From Escherichia coli (lineage in GTDB: Bacteria; Pseudomonadota; Gammaproteobacteria; Enterobacterales; Enterobacteriaceae): a stretch of 64,000 nt of DNA. How positions within the stretch are numbered: position 1 is the stretch's first letter; each line of letters begins with the position of its first letter. Location: assembly GCF_013315695.1 (NCBI RefSeq), contig NZ_CP054356.1. The stretch is one strand, 5' to 3'. This document shows positions 2,515 to 13,148 of this stretch, one piece after another. The notes below the pieces were generated by a model that had not been told where the DNA came from, ran no database searches, and saw only the letters and a list, made by a program, of their open reading frames with translations. The position numbers were made by a program, and so were the translations under genes.

Positions 2515-2948
2515 TCAACGTTCTTTAGCTCCTTCCACTAACAGCCGACCTATCTCAAACACCGCAGCTGACCGTCCCGACTTCACCGCTTCGGCTTTCT
2601 GTCCCTCAACAAACCAGTTATTACCGTCCGTTCGGACCAACTCAAACATCCATGACATATCGTAAACGTGTTCCGGGATCAGCGACCCTTCTCCGGCCAG
2701 AATACCCGCCGTTATGGAGTGGTTGCCCCCGTGCACAAAGCCAATACGCCAGGGCAACCACAGGTCAACATAGTGGTTGTTTTTATCTTGCTTCCACGGC
2801 TTCCCCTTATGGGTTCCAATGCGTGAAACGTTATCGATATAGCGTGGTAGGCTCCAAGGCCACGGCAGCACTATGTCGCTTGCCAGCGACAACGGATAAT
2901 CAGCGCCGTTCATCTCACACTCTTTCATCTTTTCGTAAGATTGTATTT
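2515..2948 (-). pseudogene. 3' portion of an unknown gene interrupted by the Tn5403-like insertion (5' portion at 6829-7060)
   Basis: After removing 2949-6828 (element plus one TATTT copy) the minus-strand frame runs continuously from a GTG start at 7060 to the stop at 2515, about 221 aa; hand-translated junction ...KGLTQIQSYEKMKECEMNG.... Confidence 0.55.
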
Positions 2949-2981
2949 GGGCTCCGTTTGGGAAACGGAAAATATTGTACG

Positions 2982-5969
2982 TTAAGGCTGTTTTTTGTAC
3001 TGACTGACATCAACTGCTCGCAAAGGACGATACTTCCCTTCAGCCAGCTTCTTATTGTTTTTCCAGATATAGTCCCCTGTCAGATTAATGTGCTCCCAGC
3101 CCAGCGGAGACAAATGTGACAACAATTGCTCATTAATATGTAGCCCTTTCTTTTTCAGCAGGTTAATGGCGTTTTCTATATATACGGTATTCCACAAAGT
3201 GATTGCGGCAGTGAGCAGCGTAAGCCCACTGGCGCGGTAACTCTGGTTTTCAATACCACGATCCCTTATTTCTCCCAGACGATGCATGAAGACAGCTCTG
3301 GCAAGGGCATTCCGGGCTTCCCCTTTGTTCAGACCTGCCTGAACCCTACGACGAAGCGCCGGATCGCGGAACCAGTCCAGCATGAACAGTGTTCGCTCAA
3401 TACGACCAATTTCTCTTAACGCCTTAGCAAGGCCATTCTGTTTCGGATAACTGGTCAATTTTTTCAGCATCAGAGAAGCGGTCACTGTTCCCTGTTTTAT
3501 TGAGGTCGCCAGTCTCAGAATTTCATTCCAGTGTATTTTTATCTCTTTGATATTCAGGGGGGTTGTGGAGATAATTGACTGTAGAGCAGGATAGTTATCA
3601 GCTTTACCTTGAATAAACAAACGTTTGTCATGCAGATCCCGGATCCTTGGGGCAAAAGCGAATCCCAGCAGATGCATTAGTGCAAAAACATGCTCCGTGA
3701 AACCTGCTGTATCGGTGTAATGTTCCGTTATATCAAGGTCACTTTCGTGATACAGAAGACCATCAAGTACGTGGGTGGAATCACGAACACGACTGATTAC
3801 TTTGGTATAAAACGGACTATATTGATCTGAGATATGCGTATAAAACTGCACCCCAGGTTCCTGACCGTACTTCAAATTAACCTGACCGGCATAGCGCCCA
3901 TGACTGCCAACCCTAAAATTCTGGCCGTCAGAGGATGAGGTGGAACCGTCTCCCCATAATGCCGCCAGCGGTCGTGACTTCTGGGCATTAACCAGTTCTG
4001 CCAGTGCAGCAGAGTACGTTTCATCACGGATGTACCATGCTTGTATGTTTTCCAGCGAAGCTCGTGTGGTTCCCGGACAGGACTCTGCCATTTTTTCCAA
4101 CCCTAGATTGATGCCGTCCGCCAGGATAGTGGTTAGTAGTAAACGATTATCCTGAGGACGGATTAGCGGATTCTTAAGATGAGTAAAATGTCGCGAGAAG
4201 GCAGTCCATCGCTCGACTTCATCAAGTATCTCTGTAATTTTGGGGTGCGGTAGCATGTTGTAAATCAGGTCGGCCAGGGGAGAGACTGTTGAAGGAACGC
4301 TGTTATCCAGTGGGGTGATCTTTACACCTTTATCTGAAATATCCACATCAGGAAGCTCCCCTGCGACAGCCATTGCGTTAACTTCCTCCAGACGGGAGGC
4401 CAGTAGAGTCAGTCTGGCATTAAGATAAGCCCCGCATTCTGTGCCAACAGGTAAATTTAATAGGTTATTATTTAATAACTTTTCGAAATCATCGTTAGGC
4501 ATAAGATAATCATCAAAGTTTTTGTAGCGCCGGGAGCCCCTGACCCAGATATCACCCGCCCGCAGCGCCCCCTTTAGCTCATTCATTGCGCAAATTTCAT
4601 AGTATTGTCGGTCAATGCCTGAGGGGGTGACCACCATCTTTCTCCAGCTCTCAGGAATGAAATCCAGTGGTGCCGATGCAGGAACCTTTCGTAGCTGTTT
4701 ACGGTACATATCACGAATAGTTTCAAGGGCATCATTAAGCGGCAACGCTGCCGAAGTGGCTCTCAGTTGCAGGGCCGATAGAAAACGAAAAGAATATTTG
4801 CGCAATGTACTGAATTTTTCGGTAATAAGATGAAGCGGCTCAAAATTATCCTTACGTGCAAGAAGCTTTGTTTCCTCCAGACTGGCGACAAAATCGTCCC
4901 ACGGTAACACTCGTTCAATAGCAGACAGAGGATCTTCGCCTGCATTGCGTGCATCCAGGATAGCCTGGCCAACAGAAACATACTGACGTAACTTTTGCTG
5001 TATCAACTTGCCCGTTTTCTGAAGACGCTCAGCCTGCTGATGTTTTGCCCGACTGAACATGCTGCCTAGAATACGTTCATGCAGTTCTATAATTTCATCA
5101 ATGATTGTGGCTCTGGCCTCAGTCAGTACACAGACCATCGTTGCGTATCGACGAGCAGGGGAAAAATCAGCCAGATCGCGACTGCTCATTTTGCGGCCCT
5201 CACGCGCGAGTTTCAGCAATCGGTTCTGGTGAACGGTTCTCTCCACTCCTTCCGGCAGCGCCAGAGCTTCAATAGCGTTAAGGCGGTCAATGTGTTGCAG
5301 GACATTCTTTCCATTGATTTTCCCTGGAGGTTGAAGCAGCCACGTCAAACGGGATATTTGTTTTTCATTTGTCACCAACAGGGCATCAAGCGCAGATTTA
5401 TGCGTGATATCAAGGTGCGCATTCAGCGTTGTATACACCGTTTTATCACCCAGTGTCATTGCTTCTGCACAGGTACGTTCCAGAACATCAATGCCTGGAA
5501 TAATAATTCGCTGTTGATGCAGGTACTTTAGTAACTCCTCTGCGATAAGTATGCCTCTGTCCGTTCTGGTAGACAGAGGGAGCAGATGCCGGATACATTC
5601 TTTCTGAAGTGCACCGTTAAAGGCTTTCAGTTCAAGATATCGATAAAGTTCCCTCATATGCTCACGTCTGGTGGTATCACGACCGGAAACGTATTCCTGC
5701 CAAAGTTCTGCTGATAACTTAAGTCGAGCGCCAATGGTTTTTAGCAATTTTGCGGGTGGGGATGATTTTTTATCCGGGGCAAACCCAATACTTTTCAGAT
5801 AACAGAGAAGAACGGCAAAACCAAACCGGCTGGCAGGTTTACGGTGAGCATTGATAATTGCCAGATCCTGCTCACTGAAATACGTCATTCGAGTCAGTGT
5901 TAACTCATCGTCTGGCAATGCCAGTAATGATTCTCTTTCCGATAGAGAAAGAATCTGCCTCCTTGCCAT
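2982..5969 (-). CDS. tnpA: Tn3-family transposase TnpA, 995 aa, intact
   Basis: Uninterrupted 995-aa ORF with Tn3-family transposase length and organisation, distinct in sequence from the Tn2/Tn3 TnpA at 9012-12017. Confidence 0.9.
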   Translation of the reverse strand: MARRQILSLSERESLLALPDDELTLTRMTYFSEQDLAIINAHRKPASRFGFAVLLCYLKSIGFAPDKKSSPPAKLLKTIGARLKLSAELWQEYVSGRDTTRREHMRELYRYLELKAFNGALQKECIRHLLPLSTRTDRGILIAEELLKYLHQQRIIIPGIDVLERTCAEAMTLGDKTVYTTLNAHLDITHKSALDALLVTNEKQISRLTWLLQPPGKINGKNVLQHIDRLNAIEALALPEGVERTVHQNRLLKLAREGRKMSSRDLADFSPARRYATMVCVLTEARATIIDEIIELHERILGSMFSRAKHQQAERLQKTGKLIQQKLRQYVSVGQAILDARNAGEDPLSAIERVLPWDDFVASLEETKLLARKDNFEPLHLITEKFSTLRKYSFRFLSALQLRATSAALPLNDALETIRDMYRKQLRKVPASAPLDFIPESWRKMVVTPSGIDRQYYEICAMNELKGALRAGDIWVRGSRRYKNFDDYLMPNDDFEKLLNNNLLNLPVGTECGAYLNARLTLLASRLEEVNAMAVAGELPDVDISDKGVKITPLDNSVPSTVSPLADLIYNMLPHPKITEILDEVERWTAFSRHFTHLKNPLIRPQDNRLLLTTILADGINLGLEKMAESCPGTTRASLENIQAWYIRDETYSAALAELVNAQKSRPLAALWGDGSTSSSDGQNFRVGSHGRYAGQVNLKYGQEPGVQFYTHISDQYSPFYTKVISRVRDSTHVLDGLLYHESDLDITEHYTDTAGFTEHVFALMHLLGFAFAPRIRDLHDKRLFIQGKADNYPALQSIISTTPLNIKEIKIHWNEILRLATSIKQGTVTASLMLKKLTSYPKQNGLAKALREIGRIERTLFMLDWFRDPALRRRVQAGLNKGEARNALARAVFMHRLGEIRDRGIENQSYRASGLTLLTAAITLWNTVYIENAINLLKKKGLHINEQLLSHLSPLGWEHINLTGDYIWKNNKKLAEGKYRPLRAVDVSQYKKQP

Positions 5970-6135
5970 ATAGTTATCCTTGTTAATTATTTAGTACGTT
6001 ATTTTTGATGAAAAGGTTATTGCATAAGGGTACACCCTGATGCGAGATATAAAATGTGACCTCATACAAATAATGACATAACCTATATGCGATAGAATAT
6101 ATGCAACAACCTAAATGCGACAATGCGGTGAAAAA
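5970..6135. promoter_or_regulatory. Putative res site and divergent promoters between tnpA and tnpR of the Tn5403-like element
   Basis: Intergenic position between divergently transcribed tnpA and tnpR, as in other Tn3-family elements; subsites not mapped. Confidence 0.35.
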
Positions 6136-6777
6136 ATGTTCATCAGAGCTTATTTAAGGGCGTCAACAGAAGATCAGTTTGCAGATCGAGCAAAAGAGAT
6201 GCTGGAACAGTTCGTCCAAGAACGGGGGCATAAAATTGCCAGTTATTATCGGGAGAACATAAGCGGTACAAAACTTGACCGTCCGGAACTGAAACGCTTA
6301 CTGATGGACAGTCACCGTAATGATATTTTGCTGGTCGAGCAGATAGACCGCCTGACCCGACTGAGTAACAGCGACTGGATAACGCTGAAAAAGCAGATAG
6401 AACAACACGAACTGCGGATTGTCAGTCTGGATGTTCCAACATCATGGCAAGCCCTGTCAGATAAAGATCCTTCACAATCAGATCCGATTACCCGCGCAGT
6501 GATAACTGCAATAAATAATATGCTTATAGACCTGATGGCCGCGATGTCGCATAAGGACTGGCTGAGTCGTCGCCAACGCCAAAAACAGGGAATTGAACGA
6601 GCTCATACGTTGGGTAAATACCGGGGAAAACAGGCCGATCAGGAACGTCATCAGAAAGTGTTGTACTACAGACAAGTAAAAAAACTCAGCATTAGAGAAA
6701 CAGCAGATGCAACGGGCTACAGCACTTCGCAGGTTTGTCGCATTCAGGCTCTCTATAAAGAGGTTAAACCTGATTAA
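6136..6777 (+). CDS. tnpR: Serine recombinase resolvase TnpR, about 213 aa
   Basis: N-terminal FIRAYLRASTEDQ motif with the catalytic serine region and a C-terminal HTH; start chosen at the internal ATG at 6136. Confidence 0.85.
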   Translation: MFIRAYLRASTEDQFADRAKEMLEQFVQERGHKIASYYRENISGTKLDRPELKRLLMDSHRNDILLVEQIDRLTRLSNSDWITLKKQIEQHELRIVSLDVPTSWQALSDKDPSQSDPITRAVITAINNMLIDLMAAMSHKDWLSRRQRQKQGIERAHTLGKYRGKQADQERHQKVLYYRQVKKLSIRETADATGYSTSQVCRIQALYKEVKPD

Positions 6778-6828
6778 AAAACAGCCTTAACGTACAATAT
6801 TTTCCGTTTCCCAAACGGAGCCCTATTT

Positions 6829-7060: not shown

Positions 7061-7247
7061 TGTCTGTAGCCCTCCTTATCGTGATCAGGATGATGGTTTT
7101 GGGGTCTGACGCTCAGTGGAACGAAAACTCACGTTAAGGGATTTTGGTCATGAGATTATCAAAAAGGATCTTCACCTAGATCCTTTTAAATTAAAAATGA
7201 AGTTTTAAATCAATCTAAAGTATATATGAGTAAACTTGGTCTGACAG

Positions 7248-8120
<873 letters not shown>

Positions 8121-8290
8121 TCAATATTATTGAAGCATTTACCAGGGTTATTGTCTCATGAGCGGATACATATTTGAATGTATTTAGAAAAATAAACAAA
8201 TAGGGGTTCCGCGCACATTTCCCCGAAAAGTGCCACCTGACGTCTAAGAAACCATTATTATCATGACATTAACCTATAAAAATAGGCGTA

Positions 8291-9011
<721 letters not shown>

Positions 9012-12000
9012 ATGCCCGTTGACTTTCTGACCACTGAGCAGACTGAAAGCTATGGCAGATTCACCGGTGAACCGGATGAGCTTCAGCTGGCACGATATTT
9101 TCACCTTGATGAAGCAGACAAGGAATTTATCGGAAAAAGCAGAGGTGATCACAACCGTCTGGGCATTGCCCTGCAAATTGGATGTGTCCGTTTTCTGGGC
9201 ACCTTCCTCACCGATATGAATCATATTCCTTCCGGCGTCCGGCATTTTACCGCCAGACAGCTCGGGATTCGTGATATCACCGTTCTTGCAGAATACGGTC
9301 AGAGGGAAAATACCCGCCGTGAGCATGCAGCGCTGATACGTCAGCACTATCAGTATCGTGAATTTGCCTGGCCCTGGACATTTCGCCTTACCCGTCTTTT
9401 ATATACCCGGAGCTGGATAAGCAACGAACGTCCTGGCCTGCTTTTCGATCTGGCGACAGGGTGGCTTATGCAACATCGTATTATTCTCCCCGGAGCCACT
9501 ACGCTGACCCGGTTGATTTCAGAGGTAAGGGAAAAGGCGACGTTGCGCCTGTGGAACAAACTGGCACTGATACCGTCAGCCGAACAGCGTTCACAGCTGG
9601 AGATGCTGCTGGGGCCAACTGATTGCAGCCGCCTGTCTTTACTGGAATCACTGAAAAAGGGCCCTGTGACCATCAGTGGTCCGGCGTTTAATGAAGCAAT
9701 TGAACGCTGGAAAACTCTGAACGATTTTGGCCTGCATGCTGAAAACCTGAGTACACTCCCGGCTGTGCGCCTGAAAAATCTCGCACGTTATGCTGGTATG
9801 ACTTCGGTGTTCAATATTGCCAGGATGTCACCGCAGAAAAGGATGGCGGTTCTGGTTGCCTTTGTCCTTGCATGGGAAACGCTGGCGCTGGATGATGCAT
9901 TGGACGTTCTGGACGCCATGCTGGCCGTTATCATCCGTGACGCCAGAAAGATTGGGCAGAAAAAACGGCTCCGCTCGCTGAAGGATCTGGATAAATCTGC
10001 ATTGGCGCTCGCCAGCGCATGTTCGTACCTGCTGAAAGAAGAAACACCGGACGAATCGATTCGTGCTGAGGTGTTCAGCTACATCCCAAGGCAAAAGCTG
10101 GCTGAAATCATCACGCTTGTCCGTGAAATTGCCCGGCCCTCAGACGATAATTTTCATGAAGAAATGGTGGAGCAGTACGGGCGCGTTCGTCGTTTCCTGC
10201 CCCATCTGCTGAATACCGTTAAATTTTCATCCGCACCTGCCGGGGTTACCACTCTGAATGCCTGTGACTACCTCAGCCGGGAGTTCAGCTCATGGCGGCA
10301 GTTTTTTGACGACGCACCAACGGAAATTATCAGTCGGTCATGGAAACGGCTGGTGATTAACAAGGAAAAACATATCACCCGCAGGGGATACACGCTCTGC
10401 TTTCTCAGTAAACTGCAGGATAGTCTGAGGCGGAGGGATGTCTACGTTACCGGCAGTAACCGGTGGGGAGATCCTCGTGCAAGATTACTACAGGGTGCTG
10501 ACTGGCAGGCAAACCGGATTAAGGTTTATCGTTCTTTGGGGCACCCGACAGACCCGCAGGAAGCAATAAAATCTCTGGGTCATCAGCTTGATAGTCGTTA
10601 CAGACAGGTTGCTGCACGTCTTTGCGAAAATGAGGCTGTCGAACTCGATGTTTCTGGCCCGAAGCCCCGGTTGACAATTTCTCCCCTCGCCAGTCTTGAT
10701 GAGCCGGACAGTCTGAAACGACTGAGCAAAATGATCAGTGATCTACTCCCTCCGGTGGATTTAACGGAGTTGCTGCTCGAAATTAACGCCCATACCGGAT
10801 TTGCTGATGAGTTTTTCCATGCTAGTGAAGCCAGTGCCAGAGTTGATGATCTGCCCGTCAGCATCAGCGCCGTGCTGATGGCTGAAGCCTGCAATATCGG
10901 TCTGGAACCACTGATCAGATCAAATGTTCCTGCACTGACCCGACACCGGCTGAACTGGACAAAAGCGAACTATCTGCGGGCTGAAACTATCACCAGCGCT
11001 AATGCCAGACTGGTTGATTTTCAGGCAACGCTGCCACTGGCACAGATATGGGGTGGAGGAGAAGTGGCATCTGCAGATGGAATGCGCTTTGTTACGCCAG
11101 TCAGAACAATCAATGCCGGACCGAACCGCAAATACTTTGGTAATAACAGAGGGATCACCTGGTACAACTTTGTGTCCGATCAGTATTCCGGCTTTCATGG
11201 CATCGTTATACCGGGGACGCTGAGGGACTCTATCTTTGTGCTGGAAGGTCTTCTGGAACAGGAGACCGGGCTGAATCCAACCGAAATTATGACCGATACA
11301 GCAGGTGCCAGCGAACTTGTCTTTGGCCTTTTCTGGCTGCTGGGATACCAGTTTTCTCCACGCCTGGCTGATGCCGGTGCTTCGGTTTTCTGGCGAATGG
11401 ACCATGATGCCGACTATGGCGTGCTGAATGATATTGCCAGAGGGCAATCAGATCCCCGAAAAATAGTCCTTCAGTGGGACGAAATGATCCGGACCGCTGG
11501 CTCCCTGAAGCTGGGCAAAGTACAGGTTTCAGTGCTGGTCCGTTCATTGCTGAAAAGTGAACGTCCTTCCGGACTGACTCAGGCAATCATTGAAGTGGGG
11601 CGCATCAACAAAACGCTGTATCTGCTTAATTATATTGATGATGAAGATTACCGCCGGCGCATTCTGACCCAGCTTAATCGGGGAGAAAGTCGCCATGCCG
11701 TTGCCAGAGCCATCTGTCACGGTCAAAAAGGTGAGATAAGAAAACGATATACCGACGGTCAGGAAGATCAACTGGGCACACTGGGGCTGGTCACTAACGC
11801 CGTCGTGTTATGGAACACTATTTATATGCAGGCAGCCCTGGATCATCTCCGGGCGCAGGGTGAAACACTGAATGATGAAGATATCGCACGCCTCTCCCCG
11901 CTTTGCCACGGACATATCAATATGCTCGGCCATTATTCCTTCACGCTGGCAGAACTGGTGACCAAAGGACATCTGAGACCATTAAAAGAGGCGTCAGAGG

Positions 12001-12017
12001 CAGAAAACGTTGCTTAA
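9012..12017 (+). CDS. tnpA: Tn3-type transposase TnpA, about 1001 aa, intact
   Basis: Translation from MPVDFLTTEQTESYGRFTGEPDELQLARYFHLDEADKEF... matches the recalled Tn3 TnpA; ORF ends just inside the terminal IR. Confidence 0.9.
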   Translation: MPVDFLTTEQTESYGRFTGEPDELQLARYFHLDEADKEFIGKSRGDHNRLGIALQIGCVRFLGTFLTDMNHIPSGVRHFTARQLGIRDITVLAEYGQRENTRREHAALIRQHYQYREFAWPWTFRLTRLLYTRSWISNERPGLLFDLATGWLMQHRIILPGATTLTRLISEVREKATLRLWNKLALIPSAEQRSQLEMLLGPTDCSRLSLLESLKKGPVTISGPAFNEAIERWKTLNDFGLHAENLSTLPAVRLKNLARYAGMTSVFNIARMSPQKRMAVLVAFVLAWETLALDDALDVLDAMLAVIIRDARKIGQKKRLRSLKDLDKSALALASACSYLLKEETPDESIRAEVFSYIPRQKLAEIITLVREIARPSDDNFHEEMVEQYGRVRRFLPHLLNTVKFSSAPAGVTTLNACDYLSREFSSWRQFFDDAPTEIISRSWKRLVINKEKHITRRGYTLCFLSKLQDSLRRRDVYVTGSNRWGDPRARLLQGADWQANRIKVYRSLGHPTDPQEAIKSLGHQLDSRYRQVAARLCENEAVELDVSGPKPRLTISPLASLDEPDSLKRLSKMISDLLPPVDLTELLLEINAHTGFADEFFHASEASARVDDLPVSISAVLMAEACNIGLEPLIRSNVPALTRHRLNWTKANYLRAETITSANARLVDFQATLPLAQIWGGGEVASADGMRFVTPVRTINAGPNRKYFGNNRGITWYNFVSDQYSGFHGIVIPGTLRDSIFVLEGLLEQETGLNPTEIMTDTAGASELVFGLFWLLGYQFSPRLADAGASVFWRMDHDADYGVLNDIARGQSDPRKIVLQWDEMIRTAGSLKLGKVQVSVLVRSLLKSERPSGLTQAIIEVGRINKTLYLLNYIDDEDYRRRILTQLNRGESRHAVARAICHGQKGEIRKRYTDGQEDQLGTLGLVTNAVVLWNTIYMQAALDHLRAQGETLNDEDIARLSPLCHGHINMLGHYSFTLAELVTKGHLRPLKEASEAENVA

Positions 12018-12132
12018 CGTGAGTTTTCGTTCCACTGAGCGTCAGACCCCGTTTTCATTCTAATGGTGTAGTAGTTTCACGTCACGCGCACGTGCATATT
12101 CTTCGAAAGCTTCGGCGTTAGCCGGTCAACCA

Positions 12133-12388
12133 GGGGTTTGAGGCCCAACCGTACGAGATCGTACGCTAAGTTCATTTTTTGAGCAGAAGAGGTGAGTAAA
12201 GAAAACGAGGGTTTTATTTACTCTTCCCGTCAATGCCAGTAGCCATGCGGTTTCAGGGACTTTCAGTGTTAATAAACTCGGTAATCAAATCAACGTAAAC
12301 CTGCCTAACAACGCCACGACTTTATTGACTTAAAATCATATAGTTAGCTTCTTAGCGTACGTTTCCGCTCCATTGGGCTTCAAACCCC
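12133..12388. mobile_element. Tn3-derived inverted-repeat miniature element (TIME-like), 256 bp, no ORF
   Basis: Inverted 38-bp ends GGGGTTTGAGGCCCAACCGTACGAGATCGTACGCTAAG (12133-12170) and GGGGTTTGAAGCCCAATGGAGCGGAAACGTACGCTAAG (reverse strand, 12351-12388), both ending in the Tn3-family CGTACGCTAAG motif; about 180 bp AT-rich interior; no clear target duplication. Confidence 0.5.
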
Positions 12389-12584
12389 ACACCCAATGAC
12401 ATGAGAAAAGCTGGATCTGATTCTCAAAATGCTGGGATACCCATCGAGATGGAGAACTCAGTCAATGTTCCATTCTTTCTGAAATATGTGTGGGGACACT
12501 GATCTGTCGGGAGCCGGATGCGGTAGTTCCGCAGGTCCGGTTCTGAGGAGGGGCCCGTCCGGGCAACCGGCGGGTCTACTCACC

Positions 12585-13148
12585 TCATCCCCCTACAACC
12601 ACTCCCATTCGTTTAAGTATTTTTAAACCTGCTTCCTGTGGTATCTTTATAGATAAGATCCTGTTTATCTCAGGATTTATATCGAGACCTTCTGTCATTG
12701 AAAAATCACAGTGAGACAAATCAGAATGTCTGAACTCTGTATTATTAAACTCCGAACCAGTAAAATCAGATTTACGAAGGTCTGTTTCCTCAAATAAACA
12801 ATCACGGAAGCGACAGGATAAAAAAATAGATTTCTGTAACCGTAAACTAATAAAATCAACAAATCTCAAATCACAATTTACAAGAGAAAAAGTACAGGGA
12901 AACATAATGTCTGCTGCATTTACTCCTTGTAATAAACAATCTTTGAATTCACAGTCAATAAGTTTAAAAAAATTAAGTTTTAAATTCTTTATTGAGCAGT
13001 TTACGAAGCGACATTTTTCGAACTCACAATCGCGAAAGTTAAAGTTGTCAAGCTGTATTCGTTCAAATATACAATTGTAATAATTTACACCTGATAATTC
13101 ACTTTCACTGAGGTGTCGTTTTGTGATTCTTTTTTCTATTATATCCAT
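12585..13148 (-). CDS. mcbG: Microcin B17 immunity protein McbG (pentapeptide-repeat DNA gyrase protector), 187 aa
   Basis: Pentapeptide-repeat-rich 187-aa protein at the last position of the mcbABCDEFG array. Confidence 0.85.
   Translation of the reverse strand: MDIIEKRITKRHLSESELSGVNYYNCIFERIQLDNFNFRDCEFEKCRFVNCSIKNLKLNFFKLIDCEFKDCLLQGVNAADIMFPCTFSLVNCDLRFVDFISLRLQKSIFLSCRFRDCLFEETDLRKSDFTGSEFNNTEFRHSDLSHCDFSMTEGLDINPEINRILSIKIPQEAGLKILKRMGVVVGG

Follow-up and report, generated by a model that had tools for sequence, protein, structure and literature searches.

A 256-bp Tn3-type miniature element with a putatively res-derived interior on enterobacterial plasmids

Main finding

The unit at 12133-12388 of the window (64,000 nucleotides of an Escherichia coli IncFII-type plasmid, i.e., the whole stretch of DNA analysed here) is very probably a Tn3-derived inverted-repeat miniature element (TIME), a mobile unit of the Tn3 subgroup. 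We consider that the best explanation of the observations as a whole (probability roughly 0.7) is a TIME that is mobilized in trans and has a res-derived interior, both its mobility and its res function being predictions from sequence. As we picture it, the element would consist of two 38-bp repeats bound by a Tn3-subgroup transposase and a 180-bp interior derived from a res region, and would itself encode nothing. It is a TIME built like IS101, but its putative res belongs to another lineage; it is widely distributed and goes unannotated, and it may already bear a name. In the literature searched we found no name for the element, no match to its repeat string, and no IS101-like element or MITE beside mcb; publications mentioning a MITEEc appear, by their titles, to concern MITEEc1 as called routinely by annotation software. 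New is the alignment-based homology between its interior and a res region belonging to a full-length Tn3-subgroup transposon on the E. coli plasmid p67_100.

Miniature elements of the Tn3 family are invisible to standard annotation, and they can fuse replicons, delete adjacent DNA and, in pairs, move the DNA between them. A 2026 survey demonstrated this for resistance genes and states that more such elements go undetected on larger plasmids (PMC13367494). The element described here adds a widespread family with its own putative res type and a plausible enzyme donor, its presence explains a puzzling module boundary beside the microcin B17 operon, and annotators gain a sequence to seek at the joints of plasmid mosaics. 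The understanding of Tn3-family transposition itself is unchanged by it.

Anatomy of the element

The features of the element and its immediate surroundings are collected in Table 1. Its two arms, 38 nt each and 180 nt apart, are imperfect inverted repeats, complementary at 30 of 38 positions (79%). Both read inward as described in the original prediction, with an outer end GGGGTTTGA(G/A)GCCCAA and an inner end CGTACGCTAAG; these two ends are the signature of the Tn3 family, and each tip begins with GGGG. The terminal repeats expected of a TIME (ca. 38 bp, GGGG tip, ACGYTAAG inner end) are thus found in both arms, and the length of 256 bp lies within the 50-500 bp of such elements. Chance can be excluded as the source of this pairing, given that the probability of 30 or more matches out of 38 is ca. 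5e-12 per pair (ca. 3e-4 expected over the whole window) and that the best arm-pair score in five shuffles of a 2-kb segment was 21-24, as against the 30 observed.

The only ORFs overlapping the element are 21-35 aa long, i.e., there is no transposase gene and no coding capacity. The interior is poorer in GC (38%) than the window (50%), and its description as ca. 180 bp of AT-rich, non-coding DNA holds insofar as it has this composition and no meaningful ORF, but it is not mere filler, as it shows homology to a res region (see below). Among the repeats compared, the left repeat (IRL) agrees with the right repeat of IS101 at 34 of 38 positions, with the repeats of the p67_100 transposon at 35/38 and 33/38, and with the Tn3/Tn2 repeat at 26/38, while the right repeat (IRR) is best matched by gamma-delta-like repeats in locus L013 (34/38).

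Table 1 Features of the miniature element and its flanks (window coordinates)
Feature	Position	Strand	Basis
Non-autonomous Tn3-family element (TIME), whole, 256 bp	12133..12388	+	Plasmid matches start and stop at these coordinates
IRL (left terminal inverted repeat), GGGGTTTGAGGCCCAACCGTACGAGATCGTACGCTAAG	12133..12170	+	Repeat comparison
IRR (right terminal inverted repeat), inward reading GGGGTTTGAAGCCCAATGGAGCGGAAACGTACGCTAAG	12351..12388	-	Repeat comparison
Putative res subsite I (crossover site), near-palindrome GAGTAAAGAAAACG-AG-GGTTTTATTTACTC	12193..12223		Alignment with the p67_100 transposon (L012), conservation, symmetry
Putative res subsite II, conserved interior block, element positions 134-168	12266..12300		Aligns with the block GTGTTAACATACCCGATAAAGAAATCAATGTTAAC in the res of L012
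Putative res subsite III and inner flank of IRR, element positions 189-218	12321..12350		Conservation 0.90
Left flank, 82 bp from the Tn2 end to the element, part of the DUF6710 module	12051..12132		Contiguous with the DUF6710 gene region in relatives without Tn2 (L001)
Right flank, last ca. 206 bp of a group II intron (end of ltrA and domains V-VI)	12389..12594	+	Rfam and L020 homology

Distribution and conservation

The 256-bp unit was detected in 174 PLSDB plasmids by megablast, and 209 PLSDB records contain it at a cover of at least 80% by blastn, so the possibility that no other copies exist, on which a mobile element would have been hard to defend, is not borne out. It is present in 163 of 5,426 complete E. 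coli genomes, where 183 of its 184 places are plasmid-borne (megablast), and in 9 further species-representative genomes, a scan that added Rosenbergiella, Erwinia, Buttiauxella, Kosakonia, Rahnella, Ewingella and Rouxiella (including Rouxiella silvae) and brings all carriers to ca. 14 genera. Variants at 92, 86, 84, 88 and 77-72% identity occur across Klebsiella, Proteus, Pantoea, Enterobacter, Citrobacter, Providencia, Rouxiella and Yersinia. The carrier plasmids are of the IncF, IncK, IncX and other types, and come from clinical E. coli and Klebsiella as well as from plant- and insect-associated Enterobacterales; the element is marked in none of the ca. 200 plasmid records looked at.

When the flanks were included in the query, many plasmids matched the element alone, to within 1-2 bases of (chance) flank identity. 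Full-length copies were examined together with both flanks in 22 cases, representing ca. 20 contexts, and homology stops at the repeat tips in every one of them. With 22 copies in ca. 20 contexts and ca. 14 genera, the unit behaves as a discrete entity that recurs in multiple surroundings, as expected of a TIME. The first eight variants aligned, down to 84% identity, are all 256 bp long and free of indels, the more distant members measure 244-255 bp, and the entire set of 22 spans 244-256 bp. Column conservation across these copies is 0.92-0.95 in the terminal repeats, with the highest value in IRR (0.95), and 0.79-0.85 in the linkers. Taken together, the repeats, the absence of coding capacity and this recurrence support the view put forward in the original prediction, i.e., an ORF-less, TIME-like element of 256 bp that would depend on enzymes supplied in trans.

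Several individual occurrences deserve mention. One complete E. coli genome has 8 places matching the element, as against a median of 1, which might reflect recent amplification. In the K. pneumoniae plasmid pKPC-167 (L008:2643-3000), a Tn1721-like repeat, itself part of another short repeat-bounded unit of ca. 340 bp, is interrupted in its inner portion by an 86% variant of the element. The chromosome of Buttiauxella agrestis (L047:1710-1940) carries a 231-bp unit with the same repeat type and another interior, possibly a further, chromosomal TIME lineage. In Ewingella americana (L049:7325-10903) a complete copy of the element has an ORF of 189 aa immediately behind it at the tnpR position, and then come two ORFs resembling broken tnpA fragments. 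A related repeat at 10866-10903 (34/38) closes the stretch, which is perhaps a composite or else an autonomous relative in decay.

An interior related to a transposon res region

The interior of the element (positions ca. 60-200, ca. 140 bp) aligns with the tnpR-tnpA intergenic region of the p67_100 transposon (locus L012) with a score of 176, as against 64 +/- 11 for dinucleotide shuffles (z = 10.3), and an nhmmer profile built from eight copies independently matched the same region (E = 2.4e-5). In the positive control, the IS101 interior against the Tn2/Tn3 res, z was 6.1, a relationship that has been published as significant and functional; in the negative control, the IS101 interior against the L012 res, it was -0.5. 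The element interior gave z values of about 0 against both the Tn2 res and the intergenic region of the other transposon resident in the window (2949-6824). A res-homologous interior is also what is found in the res-bearing TIMEs, such as IS101 and TIME244. We therefore regard it as likely that the interior derives from the res region of a transposon, judging by these alignments, and we would give even odds that this putative res is still functional.

The near-palindrome that we designate putative subsite I aligns with a perfect palindrome located next to tnpA in the L012 tnpR-tnpA intergenic region. Crossover sites of the Tn3 type, as in the res of Tn3 and gamma-delta, adjoin tnpA. Its conservation (0.93) is level with that of the terminal repeats, and its two-fold symmetry is kept in the divergent members L014, L025 and L012. 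Conservation amounts to 0.91 in the block of putative subsite II, while only the 5' part (to about element position 199) of the block assigned to subsite III falls inside the ca. 140-bp L012 alignment. The three-subsite layout would fit these features, with subsite boundaries that are guesses from conservation and alignment. A perfect palindrome of the crossover-site type (CAGTAAATAAAACGAGGGTTTTATTTACTG) was also seen by itself in Arsenophonus nasoniae pArsFIN2 (L025:4499-4528), with no recognisable repeats around it, and so the motif on its own is not diagnostic of a res.

A candidate enzyme donor

The p67_100 transposon (L012:9001-12870, 3.87 kb) carries tnpR on the minus strand (9040-9606) and tnpA on the plus strand (9777-12785), encoding a 188-aa serine resolvase and a 1002-aa TnpA. 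The first 12 bp inside one of its ends also match the element. Its TnpA is 68% identical over the full length to that of the Tn2 present in the window, which places it in the Tn3 subgroup, and 28% identical to the TnpA of the 2949-6824 transposon; its resolvase shares 34% identity with that of Tn2. It resembles the element in having related repeats and a related res, but is autonomous, with both TnpA and resolvase. Such transposons are uncommon (35 PLSDB records hold at least 80% of it), and we found no name for it.

Where they align, the L012 res and the element interior are roughly 60% identical (by eye), and given this divergence the transposon is better seen as a cousin than as the direct parent; it likely represents the lineage from which the element originated. 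This transposon, or a closer relative, is the leading candidate for supplying both transposase and resolvase, and we put the odds that the donor would be of the L012 type at about even. A closer parent was sought with the interior alone, and all eight weaker matches inspected proved to be miniature copies or fragments, none of them located between tnpR and tnpA. Transposon ends with the repeat type of the element turned up in the species-genome scan (L032-L040, L045, L046, L050, L051), and res similarity was absent from the two tnpR-tnpA intergenic regions tested (L046, L049).

Movement of the element would require a cognate transposase provided by another element (trans-mobilization). In replicative transposition of the Tn3 type, donor and target replicons would fuse, with a copy of the element at each joint and a 5-bp target duplication, and the fused replicons would then be separated either by host recombination or by a cognate serine resolvase working at the internal res.

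The locus beside the microcin B17 operon

Two intact Tn3-family transposons lie to the left of the element. The nearer one, Tn2 (7101-12050, repeats at 7101-7138 and 12013-12050), carries blaTEM-1, tnpR and tnpA, with an intact TnpA ORF (8853-12017) and its own GTTTT duplication; there are also relatives in which the element is present and Tn2 is not. The closest relative (NZ_CP024888) has the same Tn2, interrupted there by ISEc10, and a different region to the left of it. The other transposon (2949-6824) interrupts the DUF6710 gene, is flanked by a 5-bp duplication and is missing from the closest relative plasmid. Between its 38-bp repeats of the MITESen1 type (GGGCTCCGTTTGGGAAACGGAAAATATTGTACGTTAAG) it encodes a TnpA of 995 aa (minus strand, 2982-5969) and a serine recombinase of 220 aa (plus strand, 6115-6777). 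The repeats of the element had been predicted to differ from those of both residents, and they do: they match those of Tn2 at 26-29 of 38 positions and are clearly unlike those of 2949-6824 in a by-eye comparison. It was also right that the transposase acting on the element is not obviously in the window. As neither transposon is a good match in repeats or res, the window copy probably needs outside enzymes, and on the plasmid where it now resides it probably cannot move unless some other replicon brings in a cognate enzyme.

To the right, homology to a full group II intron starts at the first base past IRR, i.e., the intron has been cut off exactly at the tip of the element. The remnant shares 93.8% identity with the 3' end of a complete, ltrA-bearing intron in L020 (such complete copies are found on other E. 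coli plasmids), and Rfam matches Intron_gpII at 12509-12584 with 34.4 bits (E = 1e-4), a score under the gathering threshold. The microcin B17 operon (mcbG-mcbA, minus strand) begins 196 bp to the right of the element, with the intron remnant downstream of mcbG. The element has no functional link to microcin B17, and the adjacency is incidental.

The module on the left otherwise occurs in IncN backbones, with homology ending 28 bp short of the element, and the module on the right otherwise adjoins ltrA genes. Because the two occur separately elsewhere, the window copy sits on a rearrangement joint, a seam between the unrelated DUF6710 module and the truncated intron. The bases flanking it (aacca and acacc) do not match, so there is no 5-bp duplication, in agreement with the original prediction. 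In PLSDB the site of this copy was not found empty, every full-length match to the fused flanks being occupied; one candidate (H333/L021) was rejected as it carries the element. Such a joint would be the expected outcome of an unresolved fusion, of an adjacent deletion or of recombination between two copies of the element, and the history of this locus presumably involved one of these.

Insertion and rearrangement junctions

A copy with an intact target duplication, which had been proposed as a thing to look for in plasmid and chromosome databases, was found in P. stewartii. It reads TAAAC[element]TAAAC, i.e., the 5-bp duplication is clean, and in Pantoea sp. JZ2 a related plasmid shows the same site uninterrupted, with a single TAAAC and 96.7% identity across the joint. 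The P. stewartii copy is a clean insertion of the Tn3 type. The duplication of 5 bp (rarely 6 bp) expected of Tn3-type transposition is thus seen in the family, but not at the window copy. The other 21 of the 22 copies, the window copy among them, are without a 5-bp duplication, and their AT-rich flanks do not match each other. Since only one of 22 copies has a duplication, most junctions are not simple insertions, a point that counts against our preferred reading.

Without a transposase, no new junction can form at the tips of the repeats. The loss of duplications is what would be expected after unresolved replicon fusions, intramolecular transposition or recombination between copies, the cause at each locus being our reading of the junctions. 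The missing duplication had been attributed to an old insertion or a later rearrangement; the rearrangement is supported, as the joint is seen, but the absence characterizes the family as a whole (21 of 22 copies), goes together with rearrangements and is not a sign of age at the window locus.

Individual junctions illustrate this. At L004 the element stands where related IncF plasmids have a further 159 bp of a DUF2726 gene, which is an insertion with an adjacent deletion. At L003 and L006 the right flank is common and the left flanks differ. Two identical direct copies of the element surround 919 bp containing a ColE1-type RNAI gene at L009:6001-7431 (RNAI at L009 6817-6913, above the Rfam gathering score), and another two surround 635 bp at L019:11071-12215, a fragment with a resemblance to a ColE1-type origin that is by eye alone and below threshold. 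A single copy from Kosakonia adjoins RNAI (L043 376-482) at L043:1-482. These three loci look like trimmed fusions with small plasmids. The pattern of a simple cointegrate was rejected for the two-copy loci L009 and L019, as neither has matching outer or inner 5-bp flanks, and no resistance gene was seen between paired copies of the element.

Alternative explanations

The seams at which the element is found invite readings in which simple insertion plays a lesser part. It is possible, though we hold it as a tentative view, that the element is mainly a portable Tn3-type joint for fusion and recombination (repeats and res, no enzymes) that repeatedly welds modules, such as small ColE1-type replicons into large plasmids or modules of the IncN type to backbones of the IncF type, and is left behind at the seams; this would explain why 21 of 22 copies have no duplication and, if true, would make the element an abundant, unannotated driver of plasmid mosaicism across Enterobacterales. 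Less probable still is that it is a domesticated or relic res, i.e., a portable recombination or multimer-resolution site or a plasmid-fusion hotspot served by resolvases in trans, with negligible transposition. TIME-RES elements have been proposed as portable recombination modules (Szuplewska et al., PMC4133298), and the interior blocks conserved like the repeats, the length held to 244-256 bp across ca. 14 genera, the prevalence of copies without duplication, several of them at module joints, and the single shared flank of L003 and L006 would all suit such a role. Yet recombination inside the element cannot create new junctions at its tips, of which there are ca. 20 different ones, the terminal repeats are its most conserved part down to the outermost bases (which argues for continuing selection for recognition by a transposase), one recent clean insertion is documented, and the window contains no resolvase with a related res. 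The idea that the repeats are the leftover ends of two truncated transposons, joined here by deletion, had been named as what would speak against a mobile element. It could draw on the 8 of 38 positions at which the arms differ, on the different best matches of the two (IRL to IS101 IRR and the L012 repeats, IRR to gamma-delta-like repeats) and on the missing duplication at the window locus, but the same unit, with both arms and interior and ending at the tips, recurs in ca. 20 other contexts and ca. 14 genera, one insertion is clean and has an empty counterpart, and IS101 pairs unlike arms as well. A chance fusion is refuted for the window locus and could be entertained only as the distant origin of the founder of the family.

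Given that Tn2 lies only 82 bp away, its transposase might be thought to mobilize the element: it is intact, belongs like the L012-type TnpA to the Tn3 subgroup (the two being 68% identical), and the inner repeat motif ACG(C/T)TAAG is common to both. The transposases of Tn3 and gamma-delta are not interchangeable despite a similar relatedness, which counts against such cross-recognition, as do the 26-29 of 38 matches between the repeats and the unrelatedness of the Tn2 res to the interior of the element (z near 0) and of the Tn2 resolvase to that of the L012 transposon (34% identity). Moreover, Tn2 inserted cleanly (GTTTT) 82 bp from a pre-existing copy of the element, and as a bound repeat confers target immunity, this would be unexpected if the Tn2 TnpA bound its repeats well; we consider mobilization by Tn2 quite unlikely. 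There is even less to recommend a role as structured RNA or transcription signal of the microcin B17 operon, e.g., a 3' stabilizer or terminator downstream of mcbG. The unit does lie downstream of mcbG on the transcribed strand and has a strong predicted RNA fold (-88.8 kcal/mol, z = -6.6), but the fold is dominated by the pairing of the terminal repeats, as in any such element, the unit contains no Rfam match and no promoter-like or terminator-like site, most copies are far from mcb, and some mcbG-bearing plasmids are without the element. A TIME mobilized in trans, with a res-derived interior, accordingly stays our preferred reading.

Relation to named miniature elements

The sequences of named elements were taken from Table S2 of Gomi and Yano 2026 (PMC13367494). 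Among those compared, IS101 (TIME-IS101, 209 bp, pSC101) has the closest repeats and the same design, i.e., 38-bp repeats of the Tn3 subgroup in two unlike arms, no gene and a res-derived interior; in addition to the IRL match given above, the element IRR agrees with the IS101 IRL at 30 of 38 positions. It is a 209-bp TIME with a functional res that undergoes cointegration by the Tn1000 transposase (PMC13367494; PMC4133298). The two differ in length (209 versus 256 bp) and their interiors are unrelated, with the repeats alone aligning: the interior of IS101 corresponds to the Tn3/Tn2 res and shows no match to that of L012, whereas the reverse applies to the element. The element is a separate lineage from IS101, with another resolvase partner.

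MITESen1 (IncX1 plasmids; ISfinder) belongs to the same TIME class and has the same length of 256 bp, and identity with it had been suspected for that reason, but the published sequence rules this out, the repeats agreeing at only 18-21 of 38 positions and global identity being at the level of unrelated elements. Its describers found no res similarity, and copies without flanking repeats have also been reported (PMC13367494). The MITESen1 repeat type is that of the 2949-6824 transposon and not that of the element, and this transposon could be the autonomous partner of the MITESen1 family. TIME244 (MITEEc2) and IMU are likewise TIMEs of enterobacterial plasmids, known for resistance genes in two-copy composites, but they have repeats of the Tn21 subgroup (those of TIME244 match the element at 17-18/38) and a res of the Tn21/Tn1721 type, with no meaningful similarity to the element. 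The putative res of TIME244 was recognised by homology to a transposon res (PMC13367494). Identity with TIME244, IMU or MITEKpn1 was excluded by sequence comparison.

Miniature elements of different kinds were also encountered side by side. In the E. coli plasmid pWS0115A_186 (L005:~2750-3001) only 6 bp separate the end of a MITESen1 copy from the start of the element, i.e., two TIMEs lie back to back. In E. coli pUTAK-4-3 (L002:7513-8440) an IS101-like element of 209 bp (7543-7751), whose left repeat agrees with that of the element at 37 of 38 positions, is located beside the colicin V operon, with a 30-bp partial repeat directly upstream (7513-7542) and a MITESen1-like unit ca. 450 bp downstream, so that three miniature relics of the Tn3 type are found within less than 1 kb.
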